Program-made: the position numbers and the translations under genes
NCBI RefSeq assembly: GCF_000812185.1
Contig: NZ_CP007026.1
Span: forward strand, 525,222-557,221
Direction of reading: 5' to 3'
DNA length: 32,000 nt
Origin: Candidatus Nitrosopelagicus brevis
Lineage (GTDB): Archaea; Thermoproteota; Nitrososphaeria; Nitrososphaerales; Nitrosopumilaceae
Shown: piece after piece, positions 4,667 to 30,899 of the stretch
How positions within the stretch are numbered: the first letter of the stretch is position 1
How the letters are laid out: every line of letters starts with the position of its first letter
Notes under the pieces: generated by a model
What the model saw: the letters and a program-made list of their open reading frames with translations, nothing else
What the model was told of the DNA's origin: nothing
The model's database searches: none

Positions 4667-6169
4667 ATGGAGTCAGGTTACTATGAGCACAAACTGATTA
4701 AACCTAATTCTATAGAATTACGTGATTATCAGGTTAATCTTGCAAATGAAGCAAAAAATGAAAACTCTCTAGTTGTTTTACCAACTGGTTTGGGAAAAAC
4801 AACCATTGCTCTACAGATTATGGCACATGTCTTATCTCAAAACAAAGGTGGTGTCTTACTTTTGGCTCCAACTCGTGTACTTGTTAACCAACACTTTGAC
4901 TTCCTTAAAGAAAATCTTCTCTTAGACGATATTGGAATTGTAACTGGTGAGGATTTGATAAACAAGCGTAAAAAATCATGGATGAACAGTGTGGTATGCG
5001 CAACTCCGGAAATCACTCGAAATGATCTAGAGCGAAATATGATTGACATTGATCAGTTTAGTCTTGTAATCTTTGATGAGGCTCATAGGGCTGTAGGTGA
5101 TTATGCATATACTGGAATTGCAAGACATTTCAAAGAAAAATCTCTCATACTGGGAATGACTGCTACTCTTCCTAGTGAAAAGGTCAAAGCTACTGAGATA
5201 ATTGTTTCTTTAGGAATTCAAAATATACTACAAAGAAGTGACGAAAGTTCTGACGTTCAACCATACATTCAAAAAACAAATACTGAATGGATTATGGTTG
5301 ATCTTCCACCTGAAATGAAAGCAATTCAAAAATGTCTTCAGATTGCATTAGATGACCGTTACACAACTTTACGAAAAAATGGAATTCAGATTGGACAGAA
5401 TAAATCTCTGTCAACATTACTTAGAATTCGTCAATATGTACTAACACAAAATCGTATTTCTGCTAAACCCTTATTCACTGCAATTAGAATTACATACGCA
5501 TTAAACATTTTTGAGGCACATGGAATTACCTCTTTTCTAAAATTTTGTGATAGAACTAAAGCAAAAAAAGGTGTAGGGATTAAAGAGCTTTTTGAAAAAG
5601 ATCCTAACTTCATGCGTGCTATTGAACTAGCTAATTTTGCAAAAACTCAGGGAATAGAACATTCAAAACTACCGGAATTACAAAAAATCATTTCCTCAGT
5701 GAACGATAAGGTTTTGATTTTCACAAGTTATAGAGATTCTGTAAATGTCATAAATGATACATTACAAAAAATGGGAATCAACTCTGAAATTTTAATTGGA
5801 AAAGCAGGTGAAACTGGATTAAAACAACAAAAACAAATTGAAACTGTTCAGAGGTTTAGAGATGGATTGACCAAAGTTCTCGTTGCAACACGTGTAGGTG
5901 AAGAAGGATTGGACATCTCTGAGGTTAATTTAGTAATATTTTATGATAATGTGCCAAGTTCTATTCGATTCGTTCAAAGAAAAGGTAGGACCGGAAGAAA
6001 GGCGCAGGGTCGTTTAGTTGTATTAATTGCAAAGGATACAATTGATCAAGTGTATTATCATATTGGTCAAAGAAAAATCAAATCTGCAAAACTGATGGGT
6101 GATAAATTATCCAAAAAACTTGAAAATAATGATTTGTCTTCTACAGAATCTTTGGACAGTTTTCTTTAA
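4667..6169 (+). CDS. Hef/FANCM-type superfamily-2 helicase (helicase-only, no nuclease domain)
   Basis: Carries LPTGLGKT (Walker A), FDEAHRAVGDYAY (DEAH box), GMTATL (motif III) and VQRKGRTGR (motif VI). The insertion domain between the two RecA lobes is typical of Hef/MPH1-like helicases. Confidence 0.8.
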   Translation: MESGYYEHKLIKPNSIELRDYQVNLANEAKNENSLVVLPTGLGKTTIALQIMAHVLSQNKGGVLLLAPTRVLVNQHFDFLKENLLLDDIGIVTGEDLINKRKKSWMNSVVCATPEITRNDLERNMIDIDQFSLVIFDEAHRAVGDYAYTGIARHFKEKSLILGMTATLPSEKVKATEIIVSLGIQNILQRSDESSDVQPYIQKTNTEWIMVDLPPEMKAIQKCLQIALDDRYTTLRKNGIQIGQNKSLSTLLRIRQYVLTQNRISAKPLFTAIRITYALNIFEAHGITSFLKFCDRTKAKKGVGIKELFEKDPNFMRAIELANFAKTQGIEHSKLPELQKIISSVNDKVLIFTSYRDSVNVINDTLQKMGINSEILIGKAGETGLKQQKQIETVQRFRDGLTKVLVATRVGEEGLDISEVNLVIFYDNVPSSIRFVQRKGRTGRKAQGRLVVLIAKDTIDQVYYHIGQRKIKSAKLMGDKLSKKLENNDLSSTESLDSFL

Positions 6170-6513
6170 GGGTCGCTCTTTTTATCATCGTCTGGACTTT
6201 TTTTATCTCCGCCTGGCCCTAGCATTTCTTCTGGTTTCACGTCATTATCCCATGTGCCTCTAATTCCTTTTAGTAGTGCAAGCCCTCCTGCGGCTAAAAT
6301 ACCAATTACTCCTGCAAACATCAAATTCCTATTCTGCAGCTGTTCTTCACAATCAATTTTTACTTCAACATTTTCATCTGTATAGTCATAACATTCTGAA
6401 AATTCTTTTGTTTGAACTGTGATATCTTGATACTGAGATCCAAAAACTGCCATTACAATAAATCCTACTGATAATACGCCTACGCCGATCATAACAAAAC
6501 GTATGTCACTCAT
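6166..6513 (-). CDS. Hypothetical two-TM membrane protein with Cys-containing loop and acidic/basic tail
   Basis: Hydrophobic helices VMIGVGVLSVGFIVMAVF and MFAGVIGILAAGGLALL. The ORF track starts at 6561. ATG 6513 (MSDIRF) has a TATA-like box 30 nt upstream, while the 6561 start has none. Confidence 0.6.
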   Translation of the reverse strand: MSDIRFVMIGVGVLSVGFIVMAVFGSQYQDITVQTKEFSECYDYTDENVEVKIDCEEQLQNRNLMFAGVIGILAAGGLALLKGIRGTWDNDVKPEEMLGPGGDKKSPDDDKKSDP

Positions 6514-6535
6514 TGTAAAATCTAAACATAAACAA

Positions 6536-6543
6536 TATTTTAA
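6536..6543 (-). promoter_or_regulatory. TATA-like box (TTAAAATA on minus strand), 30 nt upstream of ATG 6513
   Basis: Spacing matches the other promoters in the window. Confidence 0.45.
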
Positions 6544-6581
6544 GGAATTTGTAATTTCCACTATAATTTTCTAGAAAAAGC

Positions 6582-6611: not shown

Positions 6612-9131
6612 ATGACGAAGTGGGCAGATTTTGTAGTCAGTGCAATCAAAAAAGGATCTGGTCTTGCAAACATCTCACATGTACAAATTCATGAAGATTT
6701 GGAACATGGTTTTGGCAGTCCTAAATTAATTGACAAATATCAGTTATCTTCAAAAATACAAAAAGGTCTCACATTTGTTACAGTTCATAAAAAAAATGAA
6801 AATGAGTGGGCAGTTGGAGAACTCATTAGAACTTATGTTAAAGATGGTGAAGCATACATCCGAACCGATGATAACAAAGTTGACGGTGACAATCTTGGTC
6901 ATATGCCAACGGTAGATGAATTAGATTTAGTTTTCAAAGAAATTAAAAAAGAAGAGCCAAAACCAATTCCTACTCCAAAACCAACACCTCCTCCAGAACC
7001 CGAACCTGAACCAGTTGTAGAAACACCTTCTCCAAAAATAAATCCAAATGATGGTGATTTTGAATATGAAGATTCTAAACGAAAATCTTTAGCAGAAGAA
7101 GCTGAAAAATCACGTTCAAACAAATCTATGCCAAAGGGCTGGAGCGAAAAACCTACAGAAAAAGAAATCATTAGTCATGAAATCAAGGAAATGAAGAAAA
7201 AATCCAAACAAAACATATCGCGAGAAAAAGAATTCTCAGATTATGAACAGAAATATCTTGAAAAATTTGAAAAGGGCAAATCAAAAAGTGATAAGTTAAA
7301 AGAAAAATTGAAAAAAACAGAACAAGAAAAACATGATGCTAGAATTTCTAGACGTATAGAACTTGAAAAAGCATCTGGAAAAGATTATGAAAAATTATTA
7401 TCTGAAAAACCAACGCCAGAAAAAGAACCTGAATCTGAGCCTGTTTCTAAGGTTGTAGAAAAAGAGATTGAAAACGAGGAGAAACCCTCAATAGAAAATC
7501 GTATTTCTAGCGTGTTTAAACGGGCAAAATCCAGTGCAAGCACTTCAAGCAAAATTGCAGATGATACTAGAAACTTCATTAGGAAAAAACGGGTTGCTAC
7601 AAAATCTGAACCAGAACCTAACCCAGAACCTAAACCCGAAGGTGGCGGTGGTCCGCATGGACATGATGAAAAATCTAAACCAAAACCTAAACAACCTAAA
7701 GAAAATCCTGATGCTGTAAAAGAAAACGCAAGAAGAGAAAAACTTGCAAAAGAAGCATTGGCAACTCGTTCTAACAAAACTTTACCAAAAGGATTCGGTC
7801 AAGAACCTCCTTCTACAGGTCCTCATGCTCATGATGAAAAACCAGATGAAAAAGAATCAACACCAAAAGATGATTCCAAAGAAGAACAACTTCAAAAAGA
7901 ATTGGCTAATGCAAAGGCTGCACAAGATGAGGCAATAAAGCGTGAACGTGAACAACATGAAAAAGAACTAGAGCAGATAAAGATCCAAATTATGGAAGAT
8001 GCACGAAAACAGGCAGAAAAAGAGGCACAGATAATTCGGGATAAATTACAAAAAGAAATTGATGATGCAAAGGCTGCACAAGAGCAATTACGCAAAGAAG
8101 TCGAAGAAATTAAACTTCTAAAAGAAAATATGGAAAAAATTAAGAACGAACAAAATACTGAAGCCAAAGCTCAAACCGAAGCTGAAGAAAGAAGAGAAAA
8201 ACTTGCAAAAGAAGCATTGGCAACTCGTTCTAACAAAACTTTACCAAAAGGATTCGGTCAAAAATCAACATCTGGCGGTCCTCATGCTCATGATGAAAAC
8301 CCAGATGAAGCAAAAGCTCAGGCTGAAGCAGAAGCAAAAGCTCAGGCTGAAGCAGAAGCAAAAGCTCAGGCTGATGCAGAAGCAAAAGCAAAAGCTCAGG
8401 CTGATGCAGAAGCAAAAGCAAAAGCCGAATCTGCACAACTCCAAAGAGAACTTGAAGAAGCCAAAGCCGAAAAAGAACAGCTAGAACGAGAAGAGGCTGA
8501 AGAAAGAGCAGCAGCTGAGGCAGAAGCAAAAGCTCAGGCTGATGCAGAAGCAAAAGCAAAAGCCGAAGCTGCACAACTCCAAAGAGAACTTGAAGAAGCC
8601 AAAGCCGAAAAAGCAAGATTAGAGAAAGAAGAGGCTGAAGAAAGAGCAGCAGCTGAGGCAGAAGCAAAAGCTCAGGCTGATGCAGAAGCAAAAGCAAAAG
8701 CCGAATCTGCACAACTCCAAAGAGAACTTGAAGAAGCCAAAGCCGAAAAAGCAAGATTAGAGAAAGAAGAGGCTGAAGAAAGAGCAGCAGCTGAGGCAGA
8801 AGCAAAAGCTCAGGCTGATGCAGAAGCAAAAGCAAAAGCCGAATCTGCACAACTCCAAAGAGAACTTGAAGAAGCCAAAGCCGAAAAAGCAAGATTAGAG
8901 AAAGAAGAAGAATCATCTAAAAATGATAACACTGATCTTGCCTCTGAACTCAAGGCTGAATTAGACAATTTACGTAAAGAACTTGAAAATGTTGATGATG
9001 AAGATTCTGACGAAGAAGATGAAAAAACTCCTGAGGATGCAAAAGAAGATTATGCTGCTAAAATGGCTAAGAAAGGTGCAACATTACCAAAAGGATTCAT
9101 CAAAGATGCAAAAGCAAACACTGGTCACTAG
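6612..9131 (+). CDS. 839-aa repeat-rich coiled-coil protein with a conserved ~100-aa N-terminal domain (DUF3892-like by recollection)
   Basis: The N-terminal domain is roughly 60% identical by eye to the whole product of 9186..9497. It is followed by a PT/PE-rich linker (PKPIPTPKPTPPPEPEPEPV), K/E-rich segments, a recurrent SNK[ST][LM]PKG[FW] motif, GPH[AG]HDE motifs and A/E/K-rich tandem repeats. No signal peptide or TM segment. Confidence 0.9.
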   Translation: MTKWADFVVSAIKKGSGLANISHVQIHEDLEHGFGSPKLIDKYQLSSKIQKGLTFVTVHKKNENEWAVGELIRTYVKDGEAYIRTDDNKVDGDNLGHMPTVDELDLVFKEIKKEEPKPIPTPKPTPPPEPEPEPVVETPSPKINPNDGDFEYEDSKRKSLAEEAEKSRSNKSMPKGWSEKPTEKEIISHEIKEMKKKSKQNISREKEFSDYEQKYLEKFEKGKSKSDKLKEKLKKTEQEKHDARISRRIELEKASGKDYEKLLSEKPTPEKEPESEPVSKVVEKEIENEEKPSIENRISSVFKRAKSSASTSSKIADDTRNFIRKKRVATKSEPEPNPEPKPEGGGGPHGHDEKSKPKPKQPKENPDAVKENARREKLAKEALATRSNKTLPKGFGQEPPSTGPHAHDEKPDEKESTPKDDSKEEQLQKELANAKAAQDEAIKREREQHEKELEQIKIQIMEDARKQAEKEAQIIRDKLQKEIDDAKAAQEQLRKEVEEIKLLKENMEKIKNEQNTEAKAQTEAEERREKLAKEALATRSNKTLPKGFGQKSTSGGPHAHDENPDEAKAQAEAEAKAQAEAEAKAQADAEAKAKAQADAEAKAKAESAQLQRELEEAKAEKEQLEREEAEERAAAEAEAKAQADAEAKAKAEAAQLQRELEEAKAEKARLEKEEAEERAAAEAEAKAQADAEAKAKAESAQLQRELEEAKAEKARLEKEEAEERAAAEAEAKAQADAEAKAKAESAQLQRELEEAKAEKARLEKEEESSKNDNTDLASELKAELDNLRKELENVDDEDSDEEDEKTPEDAKEDYAAKMAKKGATLPKGFIKDAKANTGH
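7731..7802 (+). repeat. Intragenic dispersed duplicate, copy 1 (72 nt identical to 8190..8261)
   Basis: agaagagaaaaacttgcaaaagaagcattggcaactcgttctaacaaaactttaccaaaaggattcggtcaa, encoding RREKLAKEALATRSNKTLPKGFGQ. A second identical block, ggtcctcatgctcatgatgaaaa, follows about 17 nt later in both copies. Confidence 0.9.
8190..8261 (+). repeat. Intragenic dispersed duplicate, copy 2
   Basis: Identical 72-nt string to 7731..7802. Confidence 0.9.
8307..8426 (+). repeat. Short tandem repeat, 24-nt unit gaagcaaaagctcaggctga(a/t)gca (EAKAQAEA), with two 30-nt variant units
   Basis: Units start at 8307, 8331, 8355, 8379 and 8409. In frame within the 839-aa CDS. Confidence 0.85.
8490..8903 (+). repeat. 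Three tandem copies of a 138-bp (46-codon) unit
   Basis: Units start at 8490, 8628 and 8766. Copies 2 and 3 are identical. Copy 1 differs at one base (gaagct vs gaatct, A vs S). Encodes EEAEERAAAEAEAKAQADAEAKAKAE(A/S)AQLQRELEEAKAEKARLEK. A partial, more diverged copy precedes it (about 8400-8489). Confidence 0.95.
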
Positions 9132-12437: not shown

Positions 12438-12468
12438 TTTTGGCACCAGTTTATGAAATTAGCATTAG

Positions 12469-12476
12469 TTTTATAC
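12469..12476 (+). promoter_or_regulatory. TATA box TTTTATAC, 28 nt upstream of ATG 12497
   Basis: The same octamer occurs at 25558 and on the minus strand at 25461-25454. Confidence 0.55.
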
Positions 12477-12496: not shown

Positions 12497-13438
12497 ATGA
12501 AAAAATTAGGAATTGGATTACTTGCACTTTCAATATCTCTTGCAATGACTGGTATCGGATTTGATAATGCATTTGCTGAAGAAATTAAGATTGAAAATGG
12601 TCGCGGTTCATCCCAGCCGGGATGCGAGGTAACAAACCTATGTTTTGTACCTGCAATTGCAACTGCAAACGTTGGTGATAAAATAATATTTTTGAATGGA
12701 GATGATGCTCCACATACTTCAACTAGCGGTAATCCTACAAGTGGACCTGATGGTATCTGGGATAGTGGATTACAGCAACCTGGAGTAGATTTTGTATTTA
12801 TGGCAACTACCCCTGGAACTTTTGATTATTTCTGTATGGTCCATCCGTGGATGGCTGGACAACTGGTAATCTTAGCTGCTGATTCAGAAACCTCTAATGA
12901 CATAATTTCTAACTATGGAACCTCAGTTGATCAAACTGAATCAATGATTTATGGTGATACCACACCTGAAATATCTAAAAAAGATCCAGGAGCTGTGAAT
13001 GAAGTATTTGCAAACATCGTTACAAGTGATGCTTCAAAAGGCTCTCCTCTAACAATTGAAGTCGAATTTATGGAATCAGATGGATTTGTTATCAATCATG
13101 TAAATTATGACATAACTGTATCTCAAAATGGTGAAATAATACTTGCTGACAATGGTGCACACCGTCACTTGTTCAAATATCCTGTACACACTACTGATGA
13201 ATTAGAATTTGATCCTAAAGAACATCCTGTTGACATTGATGTAACATTTCAAGGAATTGGTCACTTTGTTGGTTCATTAACTGAAGAATCAATACTAGGA
13301 GTTTACGGTCCTATTGGAACGACATCTACTTTTCAAGTAGTTCCTGAGTTTGGTGTAATTGTATCACTAGTACTAGTAATTTCAATTACTGCAGTTATTG
13401 GATTCTCTGCTAAAACAAGATTAATACAAAAATTCTAG
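12497..13438 (+). CDS. Secreted blue-copper (cupredoxin/plastocyanin-like) protein with an extra domain and a PEFG-CTERM anchor
   Basis: Signal peptide MKKLGIGLLALSISLAMTG. Type-1 Cu ligand pattern: PHTSTSG ... YFCMVHPWMAGQLVI (H...C-x2-H-x2-M). The C-terminus VPEFGVIVSLVLVISITAVIGFSAKTR matches the PEFG-CTERM sorting signal as I recall it. Confidence 0.85.
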   Translation: MKKLGIGLLALSISLAMTGIGFDNAFAEEIKIENGRGSSQPGCEVTNLCFVPAIATANVGDKIIFLNGDDAPHTSTSGNPTSGPDGIWDSGLQQPGVDFVFMATTPGTFDYFCMVHPWMAGQLVILAADSETSNDIISNYGTSVDQTESMIYGDTTPEISKKDPGAVNEVFANIVTSDASKGSPLTIEVEFMESDGFVINHVNYDITVSQNGEIILADNGAHRHLFKYPVHTTDELEFDPKEHPVDIDVTFQGIGHFVGSLTEESILGVYGPIGTTSTFQVVPEFGVIVSLVLVISITAVIGFSAKTRLIQKF

Positions 13439-20636: not shown

Positions 20637-21236
20637 CTAATATCCGCCTTTTACAAACTCATATTCTTTTTTGTTAAAGTCGAATTGCGTTACGAGTACT
20701 TCGCCCATTGCATCAACTGCTGCCTGAACCACATCTGGTTGAGTTGAGAAGAATCCTCTGAATTTTCCAATTCCAAACTCTTCTGCTATTAAACCGATTG
20801 GTCCATCTGGACCACGTGTTACAACTGCCCATACTGAAGCAAGCGGTGTTCCAACACAGCTGATAACCACACAACTATCTGGCATCTCTTGAGCCAAGTG
20901 TGGATTATTGAAGTTTCCAATTACCCACGTTCTTGGGAGTTTCTTCATCAATTTCAGATATCTGTCCTTGACAAACTCGTACCTTTTGTCAGTCTCAAAT
21001 GACGCTAGTAATGGGGATGTGTGTTTTGATGCATAGTTCTCAATCATTATGCTTAGTGCAAAAAGATCTGAACGGTCTGCTTTGAAGTTTAGATATCCAC
21101 CGTCTTGAAAGTCCTGAAAGTTCCAGTTCACAAAAATTTCGTCGCCCTGTTCGGCAATTTCTTTTTTCTCTGGGAACTTTTCAAAGACTGTATCAATCAA
21201 ACTGTCGTTCGTTAAACCCATGTTTAACGTTAACAT
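20637..21236 (-). CDS. Unknown-function protein, possibly a DICT-like sensory domain
   Basis: 199 aa, or 194 aa if ATG 21221 is used; that start has TTAAATAT 28 nt upstream. The C-terminal pattern SVWAVVTRGPDGPIGLIAEEFGIGKFRGFFSTQPDVVQAAVDAM resembles my recollection of DICT (PF10069) C-termini. Sits immediately downstream of the B12-binding regulator gene. Confidence 0.75.
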   Translation of the reverse strand: MLTLNMGLTNDSLIDTVFEKFPEKKEIAEQGDEIFVNWNFQDFQDGGYLNFKADRSDLFALSIMIENYASKHTSPLLASFETDKRYEFVKDRYLKLMKKLPRTWVIGNFNNPHLAQEMPDSCVVISCVGTPLASVWAVVTRGPDGPIGLIAEEFGIGKFRGFFSTQPDVVQAAVDAMGEVLVTQFDFNKKEYEFVKGGY

Positions 21237-21251
21237 ATAGAATATTTAAGC

Positions 21252-21280
21252 TAGTGGAAACTAGGTATTATAGTGGTAAT
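21252..21280. promoter_or_regulatory. Two TAGTGG motifs (TAGTGGAAA at 21252, TAGTGGTAAT at 21271), 19 bp apart, upstream of the 199-aa gene
   Basis: Same motif family as the clusters at 22148-22243 and 25464-25554. Confidence 0.45.
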
Positions 21281-22131
21281 TATTTCTTTTTTATAATTCG
21301 AGGAATTTGTTCCAGGGCATGAGCATCAGTGATGAGTTTTCCATCAAATTTAAAATTCGTTTTCTCCGTAAATGCCAGACCTCCTATGAAAATTGGAAGT
21401 TTCTTATATGCTTCATGAATTTTTTTAACCATTCTTTGACCAGATCTGATATTGTCCTCTAACGTTATTGATACAATTAGAGCATCTGGTTTTGCAGTTT
21501 TTATAAATTCAATTAGTGATTCTGCAGGGGTTGATGGTGATAGATTAAATGTTGTAAATCCCTTTGAGACTAAAAATGAATCTAGTACGTTACAACCTAA
21601 ATTGTGATCCTCTCCAACTGGAGTGGTTAGTACAATTTTTCCTTTATCCTTCTTTGATTTTCTATTTTCATCTGCAATTACCTTAACAAGACTATGAGCA
21701 ATGTTGCTGGCAACGTGTTCTGTTGCAATTGATAGCTTACCTTCTGACCACAAATATCCAATTTCGGCCATAACTGGTGTCATAATTCTTTCATAGAACT
21801 GGTCTAGTGTATTGCTTGAGACAAATGCTGTGTAAATCTCCATTGTATCTTTTAGACTTCCTTCTGTAAGTGATGAAAATAATTTGGTTCTTAATTGCTC
21901 AATTAATTTTTCACGTTTTTCTCTGTCCTTTGGTGTATTTTGTAGTAAAAATGAGTTAATTTTTGCATCCTCTCTAAATTCTGCAGGGATATCATCTCTG
22001 GTCACAGATGTAGATTCACCTAGATATTTGATGGTTTCCTGTCTGGATGTCTTTCTTTCTTTATCCCACGTACTTTTTACTAAATATAGATAATCGACTC
22101 CTTTTACCTTCTTTTTTCGAAGATATACCAT
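21280..22131 (-). CDS. CarH-like adenosylcobalamin-binding (photoreceptor-type) regulator with a non-MerR N-terminal domain
   Basis: W128-x9-E138-H139 (YLWSEGKLSIATEHVAS). E174-D-H176-N-L-G179 (ExHxxG). G179-x41-S221-I-T223. T223-x26-G250-G251. The N-terminal 45 aa are basic and beta-rich (VYLRKKKVKGVDYLYLVKSTWDKERKTSRQETIKYLGE), with no HTH recognised. Confidence 0.8.
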   Translation of the reverse strand: MVYLRKKKVKGVDYLYLVKSTWDKERKTSRQETIKYLGESTSVTRDDIPAEFREDAKINSFLLQNTPKDREKREKLIEQLRTKLFSSLTEGSLKDTMEIYTAFVSSNTLDQFYERIMTPVMAEIGYLWSEGKLSIATEHVASNIAHSLVKVIADENRKSKKDKGKIVLTTPVGEDHNLGCNVLDSFLVSKGFTTFNLSPSTPAESLIEFIKTAKPDALIVSITLEDNIRSGQRMVKKIHEAYKKLPIFIGGLAFTEKTNFKFDGKLITDAHALEQIPRIIKKK

Positions 22132-22147
22132 TAGCCGTATTACTGAA

Positions 22148-22243
22148 TAGTGCCTAATAAGTATATCTAGTGCTAACTAGTACATTTCGTGCCTAAAAAC
22201 ACAAAAAATTCTGAATATTATGGATTTTAAAGATTACCACTAT
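22148..22243. promoter_or_regulatory. Cluster of four TAGTG[C/G](C)TAA motifs in the divergent intergenic region
   Basis: TAGTGCCTAA at 22148-22157, TAGTGCTAA at 22168-22176 and TCGTGCCTAA at 22187-22196 are direct repeats spaced 20 and 19 bp. ATAGTGGTAA lies on the minus strand at 22243-22234. The first two flank the AT-rich TATA candidate at 22155-22168. Confidence 0.5.
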
Positions 22244-22282: not shown

Positions 22283-22555
22283 TTGGCTCGCGAAAAAAGA
22301 ACAAGAATTCAATTGTATTTTGATATAATTTCAGCAATAATCCAAGAAGAAGATATCTCGCCAACACGAATTCAGTTCAAATGTAATACCTCCTATGATA
22401 AATTAATGAAATATCTGGAAGAAATGCAAAAACGTGAAATCATAGCAAGAAATGGCTCAATCGGTGTTACCGATAAAGGAAAAAAATTTCATACGGATTA
22501 TTCAAAAATTAACGATCTAATATCTGAAATTAGTAAAACGATTACGGAAGAGTAA
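22283..22555 (+). CDS. Small winged-helix DNA-binding protein (HTH_45-like)
   Basis: 90 aa. RIQLYFDIISAI...SPTRIQFKCNTSYDKLMKYLEEMQKREIIARNG...VTDKGKKF matches the small archaeal wHTH pattern. TTG 22283 is the first codon after an in-frame TAG, and the first in-frame ATG (codon 42) would remove the N-terminal RIQLYFDIISAI segment and truncate the domain. Confidence 0.65.
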   Translation: MAREKRTRIQLYFDIISAIIQEEDISPTRIQFKCNTSYDKLMKYLEEMQKREIIARNGSIGVTDKGKKFHTDYSKINDLISEISKTITEE

Positions 22556-23090
22556 ATAATTCAGTACCTTTCTCTTTTGTCTGAAATATTATAGCTTTGT
22601 GAGATTCTAGTAATTGATTCAAAAATCTATCTCTTAGTTCTTCGTTAATCTGTTTGACCTCAAACGAACAAACAAAGTTACCATTAATTTTTTCAAAACC
22701 ATCATCAACACATTGTTCAATTTCTGCCATTCTATCTGTCTTTTCTTCAGAATCAAAATCAAAGTAGTGTGTTGAAACAACTCTAATTTTAGCTTCTTCA
22801 GGTAATCCTTCCACTTTGTCTAAAATCATATCTGAATAATCTTCAAATTTTTCAGGAATCTCTACTATGTGTAAAAGCTCATTACTCTCTCCATCTTCAA
22901 TTCCAAATTGCTTCATTTCATCTAGGATTTTTTGACGATTTTGTGTTGTATAGAAGCAGTGTTGACCCTTGTCTAGTCCTTTTTTAATAAATCCATATTC
23001 TGTTTGCTTTTTTTCTTCATTTCCATCGTGAAAAAGCACTACATGTGTGCGCTCTAAACTTTCAAGAAAGTCCTCAGATTGCGAGCTCAT
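22542..23090 (-). CDS. MEDS-like (KaiC/RecA-derived sensory) domain protein
   Basis: 182 aa. THVVLFHDGNEEKKQTEYGFIKKGLDKGQHCFYTT resembles the MEDS N-terminal signature (H.v.fY...ee......fi..Gl..ge.c.y). Its 3' end overlaps the wHTH gene convergently by 14 nt. Confidence 0.6.
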   Translation of the reverse strand: MSSQSEDFLESLERTHVVLFHDGNEEKKQTEYGFIKKGLDKGQHCFYTTQNRQKILDEMKQFGIEDGESNELLHIVEIPEKFEDYSDMILDKVEGLPEEAKIRVVSTHYFDFDSEEKTDRMAEIEQCVDDGFEKINGNFVCSFEVKQINEELRDRFLNQLLESHKAIIFQTKEKGTELFTLP

Positions 23091-23111
23091 CTTAATTGAT
23101 GGTTTTTAGAG

Positions 23112-23119
23112 TATATAGA
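23112..23119 (-). promoter_or_regulatory. TATA box (CTATATAC on minus strand), 29 nt upstream of ATG 23090
   Basis: Position and sequence. Confidence 0.5.
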
Positions 23120-23124
23120 GAACC

Positions 23125-23138
23125 CTCACCTAGGTGAG
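23125..23138. promoter_or_regulatory. Perfect 14-bp palindrome CTCACCTAGGTGAG next to the MEDS-gene TATA box
   Basis: Self-complementary as read. Located at the BRE-proximal side of the TATA box. AGGTGAGT recurs at 25475-25482. Confidence 0.45.
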
Positions 23139-23196
23139 TTTCTTGGTTCCTACTGGTTATATGCAAAATTTGCTTTTCTTAGTTTAGGTAACAAAT

Positions 23197-23358
23197 ATGT
23201 TAAAAGATCCAAAAGTCGATTGTGTTTTCTGCAACAAATCGGTGTTCGACCACTCAAATTTTGAAAGCAGAGAATGCCTCTCAAAACATCTCCAGGTCCA
23301 AAAAATCCTTCAAAGCGCCATGGGTGAAACTGAATCTGGCCAAAACTTCTTTTCTTAA
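23197..23358 (+). CDS. Candidate 53-aa zinc-finger-like micro-protein
   Basis: Below the ORF-track cut-off. My translation is MLKDPKVDCVFCNKSVFDHSNFESRECLSKHLQVQKILQSAMGETESGQNFFS (C9-x2-C12-x14-C27-x3-H31). GTTATATG lies about 40 nt upstream and T-runs follow the stop. Confidence 0.4.
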   Translation: MLKDPKVDCVFCNKSVFDHSNFESRECLSKHLQVQKILQSAMGETESGQNFFS

Positions 23359-23393
23359 TTTTTCTATTTTTTTAAAAATAAAAATTTGATTAT
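23359..23393. terminator. T-rich convergent terminator region
   Basis: tttttctattttttt on the plus strand and two T5 runs on the minus strand, between two convergent stops. Archaeal termination typically uses oligo-T. Confidence 0.4.
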
Positions 23394-24863
23394 TTATGAG
23401 TAATCTGTATTGTAAACTGGTCTAGCACCGCTTGGTACTTCTGCACCAGCAGATTCCTTGACTGATTCTCCTCTTGCCTGGTAAACTCTGACTTTGTGAA
23501 ATACATTGTGGGATGAAAATATTGCCAATCCGGCAATTCCAGCTCCTATGAAATTCCTTAATGTCACATCGATACTTGGTTCTGCACCTATTACTGACAT
23601 TTGGAATACAACGTAAAAATTGTCAAATAACCAAAATGCCAAAGTTACCCATGATAGCAATCCTCCAATAAGATAGCCTAGCCTTGCTTTTTGTCTTACA
23701 AATAAAATTGCAAAAATAATTGCAACATACCAAATGAATGATCCAAATAACCATGATATTTCCCATACATCTGTTCTATCATCCATCCAGTAGTATGTGG
23801 AACCAATTATTGCCATGGCACAAAGTGAAATCAAAAGTAATTTTTGATTAACCTTGTAAGATGTTTTTTCTTCAGGTGTTTTTTCAATTGGTTTGAAAGC
23901 TACTTGTTCTTCTCTTGCCTCTTTGATTGCTTCAGTCATATGTTTGAGATTTACTGGAACAAATTCTTCTACTGATTTGTCTTTTACGTATGAGTCGTGA
24001 ACTAAACTGTCTACTAGTGGCCTTGCAAGTGATGCCTTTACCGGAGTTACCAAATCAATCCAGTATGATGATAATCTTGGCGTTAAAAATGGAATTTGTA
24101 TGATATTCAAATTTCTATTAATTATTGATGAATACAGTCTCATCATTTGTTCGTATGTCATTTTATCAGGTCCACCAATCTCAAATATTTTTCCGGCAGT
24201 TGATGGATTTTTCATAGCACCCACTAGATAATCTACAACATTTTCGACTGCAATTGGCTGCGTTGTAGATTTTACCCATCTTGGGCAAACCATTAGTGGT
24301 AATCTTTCAACAAGATATCGGAGCATTGCGTATGAACCACCCTCTGCACCCACAATTACTGATGCTCTCAATTCTGTAACTGGAATGGTTCCTGATGCTA
24401 AAATTTTGCCAACTTCGTGCCTACTTCTCATGTGTTTTGATAATTCTAAACTTTCGTTTACCAATCCTCCAAGATAGATTATTCTTTTTACTCCTGCGTT
24501 TTCAGCAGCTTTTAGAAAATTTTGTGCTTGAACTTTTTCTCTATCTGCAAATTGTTCCCATTCTTTTTTGGAACCTTCCATAGAGTGTAGAAGGTAAAAT
24601 GCAGTTTCTACTCCCTTGAATGCATTAGATAATGTGTCCAACTCTAACGCATCTGCTGCTACAAATTTTACATTATCTGAATTTTGATGTAGTGTTCTTG
24701 ACATCGCGGTAACTTTGTACCCTGTTTTGGATAATCTCTCTGTTAGTTTTTTTCCAATGAATCCTGTGGCGCCTGTAACTAGAATTGAATAATCATTGAT
24801 TTTGGCACTTTCTTTTAATGCTGCCATTTTCTCTAAATTACTTGAACTTGCTTTCTGACTCAT
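23394..24863 (-). CDS. NmrA/atypical-SDR-like NAD(P)-binding domain fused to a C-terminal four-TM membrane domain
   Basis: ILVTGATGFIGKKL (Rossmann GxxGxxG) within a ~300-aa epimerase/NmrA-like region. Then four hydrophobic helices follow (LLLISLCAMAIIGSTYYW, WLFGSFIWYVAIIFAILFV, LIGGLLSWVTLAFWLF, FIGAGIAGLAIFSS). Confidence 0.85.
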   Translation of the reverse strand: MSQKASSSNLEKMAALKESAKINDYSILVTGATGFIGKKLTERLSKTGYKVTAMSRTLHQNSDNVKFVAADALELDTLSNAFKGVETAFYLLHSMEGSKKEWEQFADREKVQAQNFLKAAENAGVKRIIYLGGLVNESLELSKHMRSRHEVGKILASGTIPVTELRASVIVGAEGGSYAMLRYLVERLPLMVCPRWVKSTTQPIAVENVVDYLVGAMKNPSTAGKIFEIGGPDKMTYEQMMRLYSSIINRNLNIIQIPFLTPRLSSYWIDLVTPVKASLARPLVDSLVHDSYVKDKSVEEFVPVNLKHMTEAIKEAREEQVAFKPIEKTPEEKTSYKVNQKLLLISLCAMAIIGSTYYWMDDRTDVWEISWLFGSFIWYVAIIFAILFVRQKARLGYLIGGLLSWVTLAFWLFDNFYVVFQMSVIGAEPSIDVTLRNFIGAGIAGLAIFSSHNVFHKVRVYQARGESVKESAGAEVPSGARPVYNTDYS

Positions 24864-24865
24864 TT

Positions 24866-25237
24866 TTACTCCTTGTCTAGTTTACGAAGTTCTTTAAGAT
24901 CTACAATCTCAATATCTTTGCTCAGAGTTACCAGAGATGATAATTTTGGTTTGGCATTTTTACCCATTTTAAGAACTAGTTTATTTTTATGTAATATCTC
25001 AAGTGTCACATTCTCTTTTTTTAGAACTTTTCCTATATGTTTGGCCTCAGTTAATTGTTTCAATAGGCTCATTTTTCCAGGAATTTTTGTAGGAAGGTGC
25101 TTGATGTTTAATCTTCTAATATCTCCTTTTGAGGAAAATTCTATAGCGGTACCATCTCCATCACTGATGGTTAAGTCTCCGCTACGGAGGTAAAGTAAAA
25201 AATTGGCAGGAAGGTCGCTTTTCATTTTCGTATCCAT
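24866..25237 (-). CDS. Hypothetical protein (123 aa)
   Basis: K/E/L-rich, protein-like composition. 2-nt gap to the downstream gene. The overlapping plus-strand ORF 24873..25193 is S/L/F/R-rich, as expected for an antisense frame. Confidence 0.65.
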   Translation of the reverse strand: MDTKMKSDLPANFLLYLRSGDLTISDGDGTAIEFSSKGDIRRLNIKHLPTKIPGKMSLLKQLTEAKHIGKVLKKENVTLEILHKNKLVLKMGKNAKPKLSSLVTLSKDIEIVDLKELRKLDKE

Positions 25238-25243
25238 TCCTGA

Positions 25244-25432
25244 TTAGGTTTTTGTTGTGATAGTCAAGCCACCTGTTAGTACAACTGTTCCTGTTGAAAC
25301 TTTCTTGCCATTGCGGTCAACCATTCCACTAAGTTCTAATTTGTCGAACTTGTATGAAATGGCTGCATGCTTTGCAGTTAGTTTATCAAAAACTTCTGCC
25401 AGGAGACTTGCCCATTCTTGTTCTTCTGTCAT
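25244..25432 (-). CDS. Hypothetical small protein (62 aa)
   Basis: ATG 25432 (MTEEQEWASLL) has TTTTATAC exactly 29 nt upstream. The longer 25474 start would place the TATA box and a TAGTG motif inside the CDS. Confidence 0.55.
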   Translation of the reverse strand: MTEEQEWASLLAEVFDKLTAKHAAISYKFDKLELSGMVDRNGKKVSTGTVVLTGGLTITTKT

Positions 25433-25453
25433 ACAAATCCTAATTACGTCATA

Positions 25454-25461
25454 GTATAAAA
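25454..25461 (-). promoter_or_regulatory. TATA box (TTTTATAC on minus strand), 29 nt upstream of ATG 25432
   Basis: Identical octamer to the opposing promoter at 25558-25565. Confidence 0.55.
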
Positions 25462-25463
25462 CG

Positions 25464-25554
25464 CTAGTGACCAAAGGTGAGTCTAGTGCCTAAATGTTAT
25501 CACCATATTACAAATAGTGGTAAATATTGGCACTAGAAGCACCCTAGTGCATAA
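25464..25554. promoter_or_regulatory. Cluster of five TAGTG-family motifs between two divergent TTTTATAC promoters
   Basis: CTAGTGACCAA at 25464-25474. CTAGTGCCTAA at 25483-25493. ATAGTGGTAAA at 25514-25524. TTGGCACTAG at 25527-25536 (reverse orientation). CTAGTGCATAA at 25544-25554. TCTAGTGCC (25482-25490) and GGCACTAGA (25529-25537) form a perfect 9-bp inverted repeat with a 38-bp spacer. Confidence 0.5.
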
Positions 25555-25557
25555 CTG

Positions 25558-25565
25558 TTTTATAC
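25558..25565 (+). promoter_or_regulatory. TATA box TTTTATAC, 29 nt upstream of ATG 25587
   Basis: Position and sequence. Confidence 0.55.
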
Positions 25566-25586
25566 TATAAATGGAAAATCTGTTTA

Positions 25587-26168
25587 ATGAGCACTACACA
25601 ATCACTTCCAAGTAAGATCGCATTGATGAAAGGTGGAATCGGGGCAGGCCTAATGGGTGGCTTCGCATTATTTTCATCATTCTTTGCAATCGATCAAATG
25701 TTAGATATTCCGGCAGGAACATTCTACAAAACCATCGGTGTTACAATGGGCGTGGATGAAACTTCAGCAATTGCAGTGGGCTTTATAGCTCACATGGGAG
25801 TTGCAGCATTGATTGGGGCCATGTACTTTTTGGCTTCAAACATTTGGAGATTCTTTAGATTGGTAACAGTTCCAAAAGCAATAATCACTGGTGTTTGGAC
25901 TGGGCTAATTGTTTTCACATTAGCATTTTTACCGATTCACATGTTCGTAATGACTCCAATGATGGAGGTAGAATTAATTATTACCGACGTATCAAAATTT
26001 GACTTGGAACAACAAAAGGCATTAGCAACCCTGTTGTATGAAAGCGACAAAATTTACATCAATGCTTTGATTCTCCACATAATCTATGGAGCAATCGCAG
26101 GATTCGTTGGAGGTTGCATAATGCATGAAGACTACAAAGGAGTGAAAAGGATTGGCGGATTCTGGTAA
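25587..26168 (+). CDS. Hypothetical multi-pass membrane protein (193 aa)
   Basis: Four to five hydrophobic helices (GIGAGLMGGFALFSSFFAI, AIAVGFIAHMGVAALIGAMYFL, IITGVWTGLIVFTLAFLPIHMFV, ILHIIYGAIAGFVGGCIM). Confidence 0.75.
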   Translation: MSTTQSLPSKIALMKGGIGAGLMGGFALFSSFFAIDQMLDIPAGTFYKTIGVTMGVDETSAIAVGFIAHMGVAALIGAMYFLASNIWRFFRLVTVPKAIITGVWTGLIVFTLAFLPIHMFVMTPMMEVELIITDVSKFDLEQQKALATLLYESDKIYINALILHIIYGAIAGFVGGCIMHEDYKGVKRIGGFW

Positions 26169-26199
26169 CAACAACGAAAGAGGTCTAAAACTTGAAGGT

Positions 26200-26523
26200 A
26201 TGTACAATACCTTCATGGGTCAAGTTTCACAACTATTCCCAAAGACCGACTCAAATCTATTACTCAATGTGATGGCTTTGGAAAGAAAGTTCCCAGATAT
26301 GAGACCACACGTTCACCTGGAGATAATCTTCAACAAAGGCACAGATGTCGAATTGCCAAAATATGAGATTACTGAAAAGTACCATGTTCAGGCTGCAGTT
26401 CACAGATGGGACAAGAATATTCTCGTTGTCACCGGAATGATGAACGTCGACACTATTGCTGAAATCGCAGATCACAAAACTGTGGAAAAAATATCTGGTA
26501 CAGCAAACGCTGCCTTTTATTAA
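26200..26523 (+). CDS. Hypothetical protein (107 aa from ATG 26200)
   Basis: The ORF-track version starts at TTG 26152, overlapping the upstream gene. The first ATG (26200, MYNTFMGQ) is preceded by purine-rich gaaagaggt...gaaggt. No motif recognised. Confidence 0.6.
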   Translation: MYNTFMGQVSQLFPKTDSNLLLNVMALERKFPDMRPHVHLEIIFNKGTDVELPKYEITEKYHVQAAVHRWDKNILVVTGMMNVDTIAEIADHKTVEKISGTANAAFY

Positions 26524-30442: not shown

Positions 30443-30479
30443 CCCAAAATATTTTACACTAGTTTTAATCTGAAAATTT

Positions 30480-30899
30480 ATGTTAAAGATATCTTTTGAA
30501 AGAAAAATTAATGCTGATATTGAAAAATCTTTTGATATAATTACAAATTTTGAAAATTTTCAAAAACTATTCCCCGAGTTTTATCCTTCCATTTTGATAA
30601 AGTCTGTTAGAGATGAGAGTTCTCTTGTTGCAGAGCATCTAAAACTTCATGATTCTGAATTTATCATTATGTCCAAACATTTCTTTTCACGTCCTCATAC
30701 ACATGAGATGCGCGTTGTGGGTGGAGATATCAAAGGAAGCAGCATCAATGAAATTTTTAGTTCTGAAGATGGAAAAACTACTCTCAAAGTTATTGCGGAA
30801 TTAGATGTAAAATCATCTCGTTTTTCAAAAAATAATTCATACAAAGATTCTTTGAATAAATTATATGATAAAATGATCTCAGAAATTGAGAAATCTTAA
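30480..30899 (+). CDS. SRPBCC (polyketide cyclase/START-like) family protein
   Basis: 139 aa. INADIEKSFDIITNFENFQKLFPEF near the N-terminus, a beta-rich middle and a C-terminal helix. AATATTTT lies 32 nt upstream. Confidence 0.6.
   Translation: MLKISFERKINADIEKSFDIITNFENFQKLFPEFYPSILIKSVRDESSLVAEHLKLHDSEFIIMSKHFFSRPHTHEMRVVGGDIKGSSINEIFSSEDGKTTLKVIAELDVKSSRFSKNNSYKDSLNKLYDKMISEIEKS

Follow-up and report, generated by a model that had tools for sequence, protein, structure and literature searches.

We analyzed a 32,000-nt stretch of the Candidatus Nitrosopelagicus brevis genome (the window; ~33% G+C, with archaeal PurP-type, TatC, and family B DNA polymerase genes) and found that the 154-bp spacer separating two divergent operons (25433 to 25586) carries an ordered array of repeated sites. 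Given their number, placement, and conservation, the segment from 25464 to 25555 is very probably a multi-site operator shared by both divergent promoters. The array is quite likely bound by a protein of 283 amino acids (aa) with a predicted vitamin B12-binding module, encoded 3.3 kb from the spacer on the minus strand (21280 to 22131) and referred to below as the candidate regulator. Taken together, and by analogy with bacterial photoreceptors, our observations seem best explained by a shared operator through which this B12 protein would repress both operons in the dark and free them in the light, an explanation in which we place moderate confidence.

A conserved array of sites lies between two predicted divergent promoters

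The spacer is bounded by the ATG of the leftward operon at 25432 (minus strand) and by that of the rightward operon at 25587 (plus strand). The initial annotation had reported an identical octamer upstream of both, and TTTTATAC is indeed found at 25454 to 25461 on the minus strand and at 25558 to 25565 on the plus strand, in each case with its first T 29 nt away from the A of the start codon. Judged by sequence only, both octamers are A/T-rich boxes at a consistent distance from a start codon, as in archaeal promoters composed of a TATA box and a B recognition element (BRE), and they presumably act as TATA boxes for the leftward and rightward operons. Their position is ordinary, as first genes of the window typically have a TATA-like hexamer 27 to 34 nt ahead of the start codon, and TTTTATAC itself is only weakly enriched in the window (6 copies versus 2.3 expected). 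With TATA-like boxes at this usual distance, the leaders would be very short or absent.

Ten sites in the window gave a consensus of ~12 bp, [C/A]TAGTG[C/G]N[T/A]AA. Between the two TATA-like boxes, the sites follow the order F1, F2, R3 (decayed in this genome), F4, R5, and F6, in both orientations and with core-to-core spacings of 19, 18, 13, 17, and 13 bp (about 13 to 20 bp overall); the five intact ones span 92 bp (25464 to 25555). F1 (CTAGTGACCAAA, 25464 to 25475, plus strand; 12.1 bits with a position weight matrix [PWM]) has its core 2 nt from the leftward TATA-like box, over the BRE position. It is followed by a GGTGAGT block (25476 to 25482, plus strand) directly 5′ of F2 (CTAGTGCCTAAA, 25483 to 25494, plus strand; 15.6 bits). 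R3 (25495 to 25506, minus strand; core CACCAT at 25501 to 25506) was recognized from alignments, in which it matches a site designated R69. F4 (ATAGTGGTAAAT, 25514 to 25525, plus strand; 14.5 bits) forms a 23-bp palindrome with R5 (CTAGTGCCAATA, 25525 to 25536, minus strand; 15.8 bits), and F6 (CTAGTGCATAAC, 25544 to 25555, plus strand; 14.1 bits) has its 3′ end 2 nt from the rightward TATA-like box, again over the BRE position. The inner sites thus form one or two palindromic modules of ~23 bp, 30 bp apart. The motif positions given earlier, i.e., CTAGTG at 25464, 25483, and 25544 (plus strand) and at 25531 to 25536 (minus strand) and ATAGTG from 25514, were all recovered, and the outermost motifs do lie on the BRE side of the TATA-like boxes, 2 nt from each.

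The clustering of these sites is unlikely to be due to chance. CTAGTG occurs 17 times in the window versus 6.2 ± 2.4 expected, a count that none of 100 shuffles reached, and 4 of the 17 copies fall within the 154-bp spacer. A weight matrix built from five sites outside the spacer found four of the five spacer sites noted initially, the one at 25464 remaining below threshold, and Markov simulations gave at most three matrix matches in any 154 bp (Poisson P of ~2.5e-7 per 154-bp stretch).

The spacer also contains two 9-bp arms, TCTAGTGCC (25482 to 25490) and GGCACTAGA (25529 to 25537), which are exact reverse complements of each other and separated by 38 bp, as previously described; they coincide with F2 on the left and R5 on the right. 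A repeat search placed them at the core of a larger but imperfect palindrome, whose 45-nt arms (25451 to 25495 and 25524 to 25568) are 73% complementary and take in both TATA-like boxes. Such a palindrome, together with the fact that the inter-TATA segment folds far better than shuffled sequences (z = -4.9), could point to a structured RNA or a DNA cruciform instead of a protein operator. The array could also be a special BRE for an alternative transcription factor B (TFB), given that several promoters have CACTAG 0 to 2 nt ahead of the TATA box, or the remnant of a mobile element with inverted ends. We consider this group of explanations very improbable. The strong single-strand fold arises because the motif copies are inverted and have a self-complementary CTAG core, and the segment lies upstream of both TATA-like boxes, so these promoters would not transcribe it. 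No Rfam match was obtained at E ≤ 1, and the covariation term was merely -0.52 kcal/mol; double changes were seen for two pairs, both from one sequence (L010; loci are numbered with the prefix L), and the paired columns are the invariant motif cores. An RNA element was therefore rejected. As for a BRE, the sites can point either way, a promoter may have several of them, and they are found on either side of a TATA box and at position -14, none of which holds for a BRE. The window contains no other copy of the unit.

To evaluate conservation, orthologous spacers were gathered independently of the spacer sequence, from 21 genomic loci anchored on the candidate regulator and 53 metagenomic loci anchored on the gene for the 193-aa membrane protein of the rightward operon (mem193). 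The resulting comparison set comprised 37 distinct divergent spacers from Ca. Nitrosopelagicus genomes and metagenomes. Across seven nonredundant lineages, invariant columns made up 92% of the four CTAGTG cores, compared to 40% of the rest of the spacer, and the GGTGAGT block was invariant in six of the seven (AATGAGT in L010). Sites were found at fixed distances from both start codons, and the sequence between them drifts. The F1 core lies 32 nt from the start codon of g62, the first gene of the leftward operon, in 30 of the 37 spacers, and the F2 core lies at +51 from the same start in 31. Relative to the mem193 start, the R5 core is at -57 or -56 in 35 spacers and at -58 in one, L010 having no scoring site, and the F6 core is at -44 or -43 in every spacer (37/37). 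Both the invariance of the cores and the fixed site positions strongly support the proposal, made initially from the window, that the region is a shared control region for the two operons. Purifying selection on the sites, which hold fixed positions relative to the promoters, is strong.

The middle of the array is more dynamic, with two sites (designated R69 and F82 in the alignments) variably present across the 37 spacers. R3 is intact (CACTAG) in L002-, L008-, and L012-type spacers, where it makes a 23-bp palindrome with F2, and F4, which has decayed to ATAATG in the L002 type, scores in roughly half of the spacers. L012 retains all six sites, organized as two 23-bp palindromes 30 bp apart with a single site on each flank. 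The array appears to change by gain or loss of whole modules of ~30 bp: one such unit is lacking from the spacers of 124 to 125 bp, a module is missing in L036, L041, L043, L048, and L049, and L047 (metagenome contig Ga0315326_10000902) carries a perfect 31-bp tandem duplication of the operator module (TAGTGGTAAGTTTTACCACTAGACATACTA, twice). The most distant spacers have an extra site downstream of the TATA box and ahead of the start codon, at -14.

Two features emphasized in the initial annotation did not hold beyond the window as special signals. The twin octamers are present here, yet both copies of TTTTATAC occur together in just 2 of the 37 spacers. What is conserved on the minus side is an A/T-rich box at the same position in 37/37 spacers, as GTATAAAA, ATATTAAA, or ATATAAAA; the plus-side box is likewise always A/T rich, usually of the TAAATAC, TAAATAT, or ATATAT type, and is exactly TTTTATAC in 2/37. 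The octamers were thus rejected as a special signal and are regarded as ordinary TATA boxes at the usual distance. The inverted repeat, although perfect in the window, was rejected as a functional unit, because only 10 of the 37 spacers have a 9-bp repeat with a 38-bp gap; the conserved units are the 12-bp sites and the 23-bp palindromic modules, and the perfect repeat results from two consensus sites that happen to face each other. Judged by the comparison of spacers, neither feature is more than an accident specific to this lineage.

The motif is tied to the gene of a predicted B12-binding protein

The candidate regulator gene has a motif pair in its own promoter. In the window, the two sites (22147 to 22158 and 22167 to 22178, plus strand; 14.8 and 15.9 bits) are 20 bp apart and flank the TATA-like sequence ATATACTTAT. 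In 21 of 21 loci from GTDB genomes, the same arrangement, GTTAG(G)CACTAG-N10-T(A/T)(G/T)GCAYYA with a TATA-like sequence between the sites, was found about 16 nt upstream of the regulator start. The pair is also present at the regulator promoter in L075 and L076, bringing the number of loci to 23 in addition to the window. The regulators encoded by the 21 GTDB loci are 60 to 98% identical, and these loci include some in which the island of genes next to the regulator is missing or the neighboring genes are wholly different.

The predicted protein comprises a basic three-stranded β-sheet N-domain (aa 1 to 40), a helical linker, a four-helix bundle of the CarH type, and a Rossmann B12 module, and it matches the Pfam domains B12-binding_2 and B12-binding. 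Homologues of CarH are defined by the combination of W-x9-EH and E-x-H-x2-G-x41-S-x-V/T-x22-27-GG, the former being absent from MetH (PMC8156234). Both motifs could be recognized here. The first, W128-x9-E138-H139, is exact in 12/12 aligned members of the family and in 111/111 close homologues; the second, E174-D-H176-N-L-G179-x41-S221-I-T223-x26-G250-G251, is shared by 12/12 aligned members, and 100 of the 111 close homologues contain both (G or S being allowed at the G position). The best NCBIfam model was CarH, at 63 bits versus a cutoff of 400 bits. The best sequence matches in the Protein Data Bank (PDB) were photocobilins (8j2w and 8j2x; E = 4e-13) and CarH/LitR, along with corrinoid proteins. 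An AlphaFold 2 (AF2) model (pLDDT of 79) has the four-helix bundle and Rossmann fold of a CarH-like module, and its top 50 Foldseek matches were all B12 photoreceptor modules, with E values of about 1e-11 and target TM scores of about 0.75 (e.g., 5c8a, 5c8d, 8c31, and 8jbs). Some Joint Genome Institute (JGI) records automatically label family members as "light-induced transcriptional regulator." On the basis of its sequence, the protein would be CarH-like in its working and is not a member of CarH in the strict sense, because it lacks a MerR domain and the array has no relation to the tandem repeats of 11 bp that CarH binds.

The protein has a new N-domain. Residues 1 to 39 are confidently modeled by AF2 as three long antiparallel β-strands, and the 40 residues of the domain include 11 lysines or arginines (consensus roughly M.F.R.KK.KG..Y.YLV.S.W.K..K..RQK..KYLG). 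The domain is rare, with 124 clusters among 1.84 billion representatives, always N-terminal, and mostly joined to B12 modules, also in the high-G+C homologues P0231 and P0238. In other proteins, it is joined to an HNH endonuclease, an AbiEii toxin-type nucleotidyltransferase, or an unannotated C-terminal region of ~130 aa (P0219, P0228, P0198, P0204, P0226, P0235, and P0244). Because of these nuclease and nucleotidyltransferase fusions and the constant N-terminal position, we infer that the domain may be a portable nucleic acid-binding module, a role that fits the data.

Another reading accepts the array as a real shared operator and assigns it a different binder, such as the winged-helix HTH_45 protein encoded in the island, small Zn-ribbon proteins, or an unlinked factor. 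In that case, the B12 protein would be a member of the regulon or an AerR-like coregulator acting through a partner, with its N-domain used for protein contacts. The HTH_45 gene and a MEDS sensor gene do lie within the island, and the HTH_45 promoter has a site of its own. The N-domain has no recognizable DNA-binding fold in Pfam or Foldseek, and AerR, whose structure (PDB 7te2) is among the regulator's matches, is a known B12-binding coregulator without a DNA-binding domain. However, the motif pair stays at the B12 gene promoter in the 11 of the 21 GTDB loci in which neither HTH_45 nor MEDS was found in the available sequence of up to 10 kb on each side (L010 and L013 to L021 among them). In L002-type genomes, the HTH_45 gene is inverted and has degenerate sites only, and a CTCACC-NN-GGTGAG palindrome elsewhere in the island would suit a winged-helix dimer better. 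Furthermore, the extra N-domain is conserved and basic and is in other proteins fused to an HNH nuclease, even if its fold is unmatched to known DNA-binding domains. A different binder is for these reasons judged unlikely, and the B12 protein remains our preferred candidate.

Other promoters carry the motif

With a single exception in coding sequence (31101), all window matches of at least 13 bits are located in promoters of one island of ~5 kb. Besides the spacer and the regulator promoter, the promoter of g199 has two sites (21251 to 21262 and 21270 to 21281, plus strand; 14.7 and 13.8 bits), 19 bp apart and abutting the TATA-like TTAAATAT; this pair is conserved in L001 to L012. The g199 start was called at 21236 (minus strand), and conservation begins at an ATG 15 nt downstream (ATGGGTTTAACAAACGA), 28 nt from TTAAATAT, so the true start is probably 21221. 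A single site precedes the HTH_45 gene (22232 to 22243, minus strand; 13.5 bits), 7 nt upstream of the TATA-like CTTAAAAG, and is retained in L007 and L011.

Weaker or variant sites were found farther away. Two variants (cores CACCAG and CATTAG; 12438 to 12476, minus strand), 19 bp apart, abut another TTTTATAC box and precede a gene for a PEFG-CTERM, cupredoxin-like protein (12497 to 13438; NCBIfam), and the variant sequences are conserved in nine orthologous loci. A single site (TTTACACTAG on the plus strand; 30451 to 30462, minus strand; 10.5 bits) lies 18 nt upstream of an SRPBCC-like gene (30480 to 30899); it is retained in most orthologues, and strong sites are associated with a paralogue in L017, L018, and L021. 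An isolated match, ATAGTGGAAATT (6553 to 6564, minus strand; 12.9 bits), was also observed between the genes at 6166 to 6561 (minus strand) and 6612 to 9131 (plus strand). In distant genomes, strong sites lie between genes neighboring the regulator, which encode a CMAS-family methyltransferase, an amine oxidase/CrtI-like flavoprotein, an SRPBCC protein, a secreted protein, and a 2-oxoglutarate (2OG)-Fe(II) oxygenase. The LitR light regulon of Pseudomonas includes a short-chain dehydrogenase, a flavin adenine dinucleotide (FAD) oxidoreductase, and the CMAS-family protein UfaM next to a photolyase (PMC9758184). The gene classes found here seem to parallel those of that regulon, a similarity that is suggestive only.

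Proposed mechanism

By analogy with CarH, an oligomer of the regulator loaded with adenosylcobalamin (AdoCbl) would occupy the array in the dark. Bound at F1 over the leftward BRE and at F6 over the rightward BRE, it would shut out TFB and the TATA-binding protein (TBP) from both promoters, and the inner palindromic modules would provide cooperative anchoring. The regulator would also repress its own gene via the sites on either side of its own TATA box, and several nearby promoters likewise. Light would then photolyze the cofactor and break up the oligomer, upon which all these promoters would fire. We think it reasonably likely that the B12 protein acts as a repressor, repression being favored because the sites occupy BRE positions and both sides of one TATA box and because an extra site is found at -14 in distant spacers. 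Light is the signal that we favor, with a chance somewhat better than even.

The B12 protein could instead bind the array and sense a cue other than light, for instance the supply or form of cobalamin or the redox state, or it could activate transcription by recruiting TFB and TBP. Thaumarchaeota make cobalamin, and a protein sensor could stand in for riboswitches; the regulator module also resembles corrinoid methyl-transfer proteins, and no photolyase was seen in the regulon. In addition, members of the family have no histidine next to the tryptophan (W-S/A); in Thermus CarH, a histidine at that place produces the bis-His state in the light (PMC8156234). Against a cobalamin-related cue, the motif was found on no gene for cobalamin biosynthesis, cobalamin transport, or a B12-dependent enzyme among the annotated genes of the window and of the distant loci. 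W-x9-EH, which caps the adenosyl group, is a signature of the light-sensing family (PMC8156234), and the top structural matches are all photoreceptors. Occlusion also accounts better than recruitment for the site positions, which are over the BRE, at -14, and on either side of a TATA box. A nonlight cue or activation is thus an improbable account, and we retain light-relieved repression by the B12 protein as the working model.

Several points nonetheless weigh against this model. Neither Pfam nor NCBIfam gave a match to a MerR-type winged helix in the regulator, and the operator bears no likeness to the tandem 11-bp repeats of CarH. A DNA-binding role for the N-domain is circumstantial, since it belongs to no Pfam family and its best Foldseek match is not significant (E = 0.26), and the HTH_45 and MEDS genes of the island could supply the binder. 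Archaeal activators can also use sites directly upstream of the TATA box. Among the motif-bearing genes, a photolyase or another unmistakably light-related gene was not found, and most members of the regulon are without annotation in Pfam and NCBIfam. Finally, all 21 genomic loci belong to Ca. Nitrosopelagicus, and because the genome scan consisted of two peptide patterns, confinement of the system to this genus is not proven.

Genes of the two operons and of the variable island

The leftward operon starts with g62 (25244 to 25432, minus strand), followed after a 6-nt gap by g123 (24866 to 25237, minus strand) and, after a further 2-nt gap, by a gene for a 489-aa NmrA-like Rossmann protein of the short-chain dehydrogenase/reductase (SDR) type (Pfam) with a C-terminal membrane domain (23394 to 24863, minus strand). 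The rightward operon contains mem193 (25587 to 26168, plus strand), for which orthologues are known, and an overlapping 123-aa open reading frame (ORF; 26152 to 26523, plus strand). Pfam and NCBIfam returned nothing for g199, g62, or g123, for either product of the rightward operon, or for the membrane domain of the NmrA-like protein. This domain (about aa 305 to 460; 23394 to 23960, minus strand) is without a Pfam family, and a stand-alone gene of ~150 aa homologous to it adjoins the regulator in distant genomes (L018, 9433 to 9888; 55% identity), which suggests a functional tie to the regulator.

The block from the HTH_45 gene to the 123-aa ORF (22283 to 26523) behaves like a variable island. 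It is wholly missing in L013 to L016, where just the homologue of the NmrA-like membrane domain adjoins the regulator, and it is partly deleted in L010, including the MEDS and HTH_45 genes; in L002-type genomes, the HTH_45 gene is inverted. In the window, the HTH_45 gene is located at 22283 to 22555 and the MEDS gene at 22542 to 23090 (minus strand). A second operator-like motif, the perfect palindrome CTCACC-TA-GGTGAG (23125 to 23138), is flanked by the TATA-like box of the MEDS gene on one side and that of a small Zn-finger ORF on the other, and its CTCACC-NN-GGTGAG form is conserved in all nine orthologous loci. The half-site GGTGAGT is the block that abuts F2 (25476 to 25482), and its only deviation is in L010, the one genome to have lost the MEDS and HTH_45 genes. 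The palindrome may be the target of the HTH_45 protein. GGTGAG is not enriched across the window (7 copies versus 6.4 expected), and two of its locations are conserved regulatory sites.

The Zn-finger ORF (53 aa; 23197 to 23358, plus strand) has a CxxC...C..H pattern and looks like a real gene. Its homologues are found directly upstream of mem193, replacing the divergent g62 promoter, in several metagenome contigs (L042, L051, L052, L056, L059, L065, and L072). Outside the island, positions 8001 to 9000 of the window are unusual in composition, with a G+C content of 0.42 and an AT skew of +0.56. This segment lies inside an 839-aa ORF (6612 to 9131) with a subthreshold Pfam match to DUF3892 (21.6 bits versus a cutoff of 22.3) and probably encodes a low-complexity or repetitive protein region.

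Significance and relation to known systems

Light inhibition of marine ammonia oxidizers shapes the site of nitrification in the upper ocean, and the light sensitivity of these organisms is of consequence for the marine nitrogen cycle. To our knowledge, no light-sensing or light-response pathway is known for ammonia-oxidizing archaea, and our literature search returned no description of a B12-type photoreceptor or regulator (CarH/LitR) in Thaumarchaeota, the term "LitR" having matched mostly "litre." It is possible, with a chance that we put a little short of even, that the epipelagic Ca. Nitrosopelagicus has a dedicated AdoCbl photoreceptor transcription factor that uses an undescribed β-sheet DNA-binding domain to gate TBP/TFB promoters via CTAGTG arrays. 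This would be the first thaumarchaeal light regulator and regulon and would mean that the CarH switch had been reinvented independently in archaea. If so, the window would hold a complete and testable circuit, with a sensor gene, an operator sequence, and target operons. B12-based photoreception would be extended to the archaeal transcription machinery, with a new small DNA-binding domain, and a light switch of this kind would be proposed for the first time for marine ammonia-oxidizing archaea. The protein would also offer a compact light-controlled DNA-binding part of possible use in synthetic biology. Even if the signal is not light, the array provides an unusually clear case of archaeal divergent-promoter coregulation and of the evolution of an operator array.

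The closest comparison is with CarH and class I LitR of Thermus thermophilus, Myxococcus xanthus, and Bacillus megaterium. Their sensor has the same two subdomains and both defining motifs, and their solved structures are the best structural matches to the candidate regulator. A large multi-site operator overlaps core promoter elements in both cases (about 90 bp here versus about 55 bp in M. xanthus), and the gene classes of the putative regulon resemble those of bacterial light regulons. The differences concern DNA recognition and promoter type: the N-domain is a three-stranded β-sheet here and a MerR winged helix in CarH, and the promoters are of the archaeal TATA/BRE type here and depend on sigma-70 there. 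CarH operators consist of three or four tandem direct repeats of 11 bp, nAnnTnnACAn (PMC8156234), whereas the array described here has repeated sites over the core promoter elements and, in place of tandem 11-bp repeats, 12-bp CTAGTG-type sites in both orientations, 13 to 20 bp apart. Moreover, one array would serve two divergent promoters, and the histidine next to the tryptophan is absent.

In the AerR/PpaA-CrtJ/PpsR systems of purple bacteria, a B12-binding module also couples light or the state of the cofactor to the control of a gene cluster, and the AerR structure (7te2) is among the sequence matches. AerR is without a DNA-binding domain and acts via CrtJ; the candidate regulator has an extra conserved, basic N-domain, and the motif is tied to its gene. 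Its match to the regulator is much weaker than those of CarH or the photocobilins.

Archaeal repressors that occlude the BRE/TATA region or the start site (e.g., TrmB-family, MDR1, and Phr-type proteins) are helix-turn-helix proteins that respond to small molecules, metals, or heat and usually bind one or two palindromic sites. The sites described here are similarly placed, over the BRE, flanking the TATA box, or between the TATA box and the start, and those in the regulator's own promoter imply autoregulation. The array differs by its five or six sites, its modular organization, its being common to two promoters, and its link to a B12 sensor.

Lastly, photocobilins (8j2w and 8j2x), which rank first by sequence in the PDB and figure among the leading matches by structure, illustrate the reuse of a CarH-type module with other partner domains (PMC10979010). 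In photocobilins, the module is paired with a globin-like bilin domain and controls enzymes rather than DNA binding.

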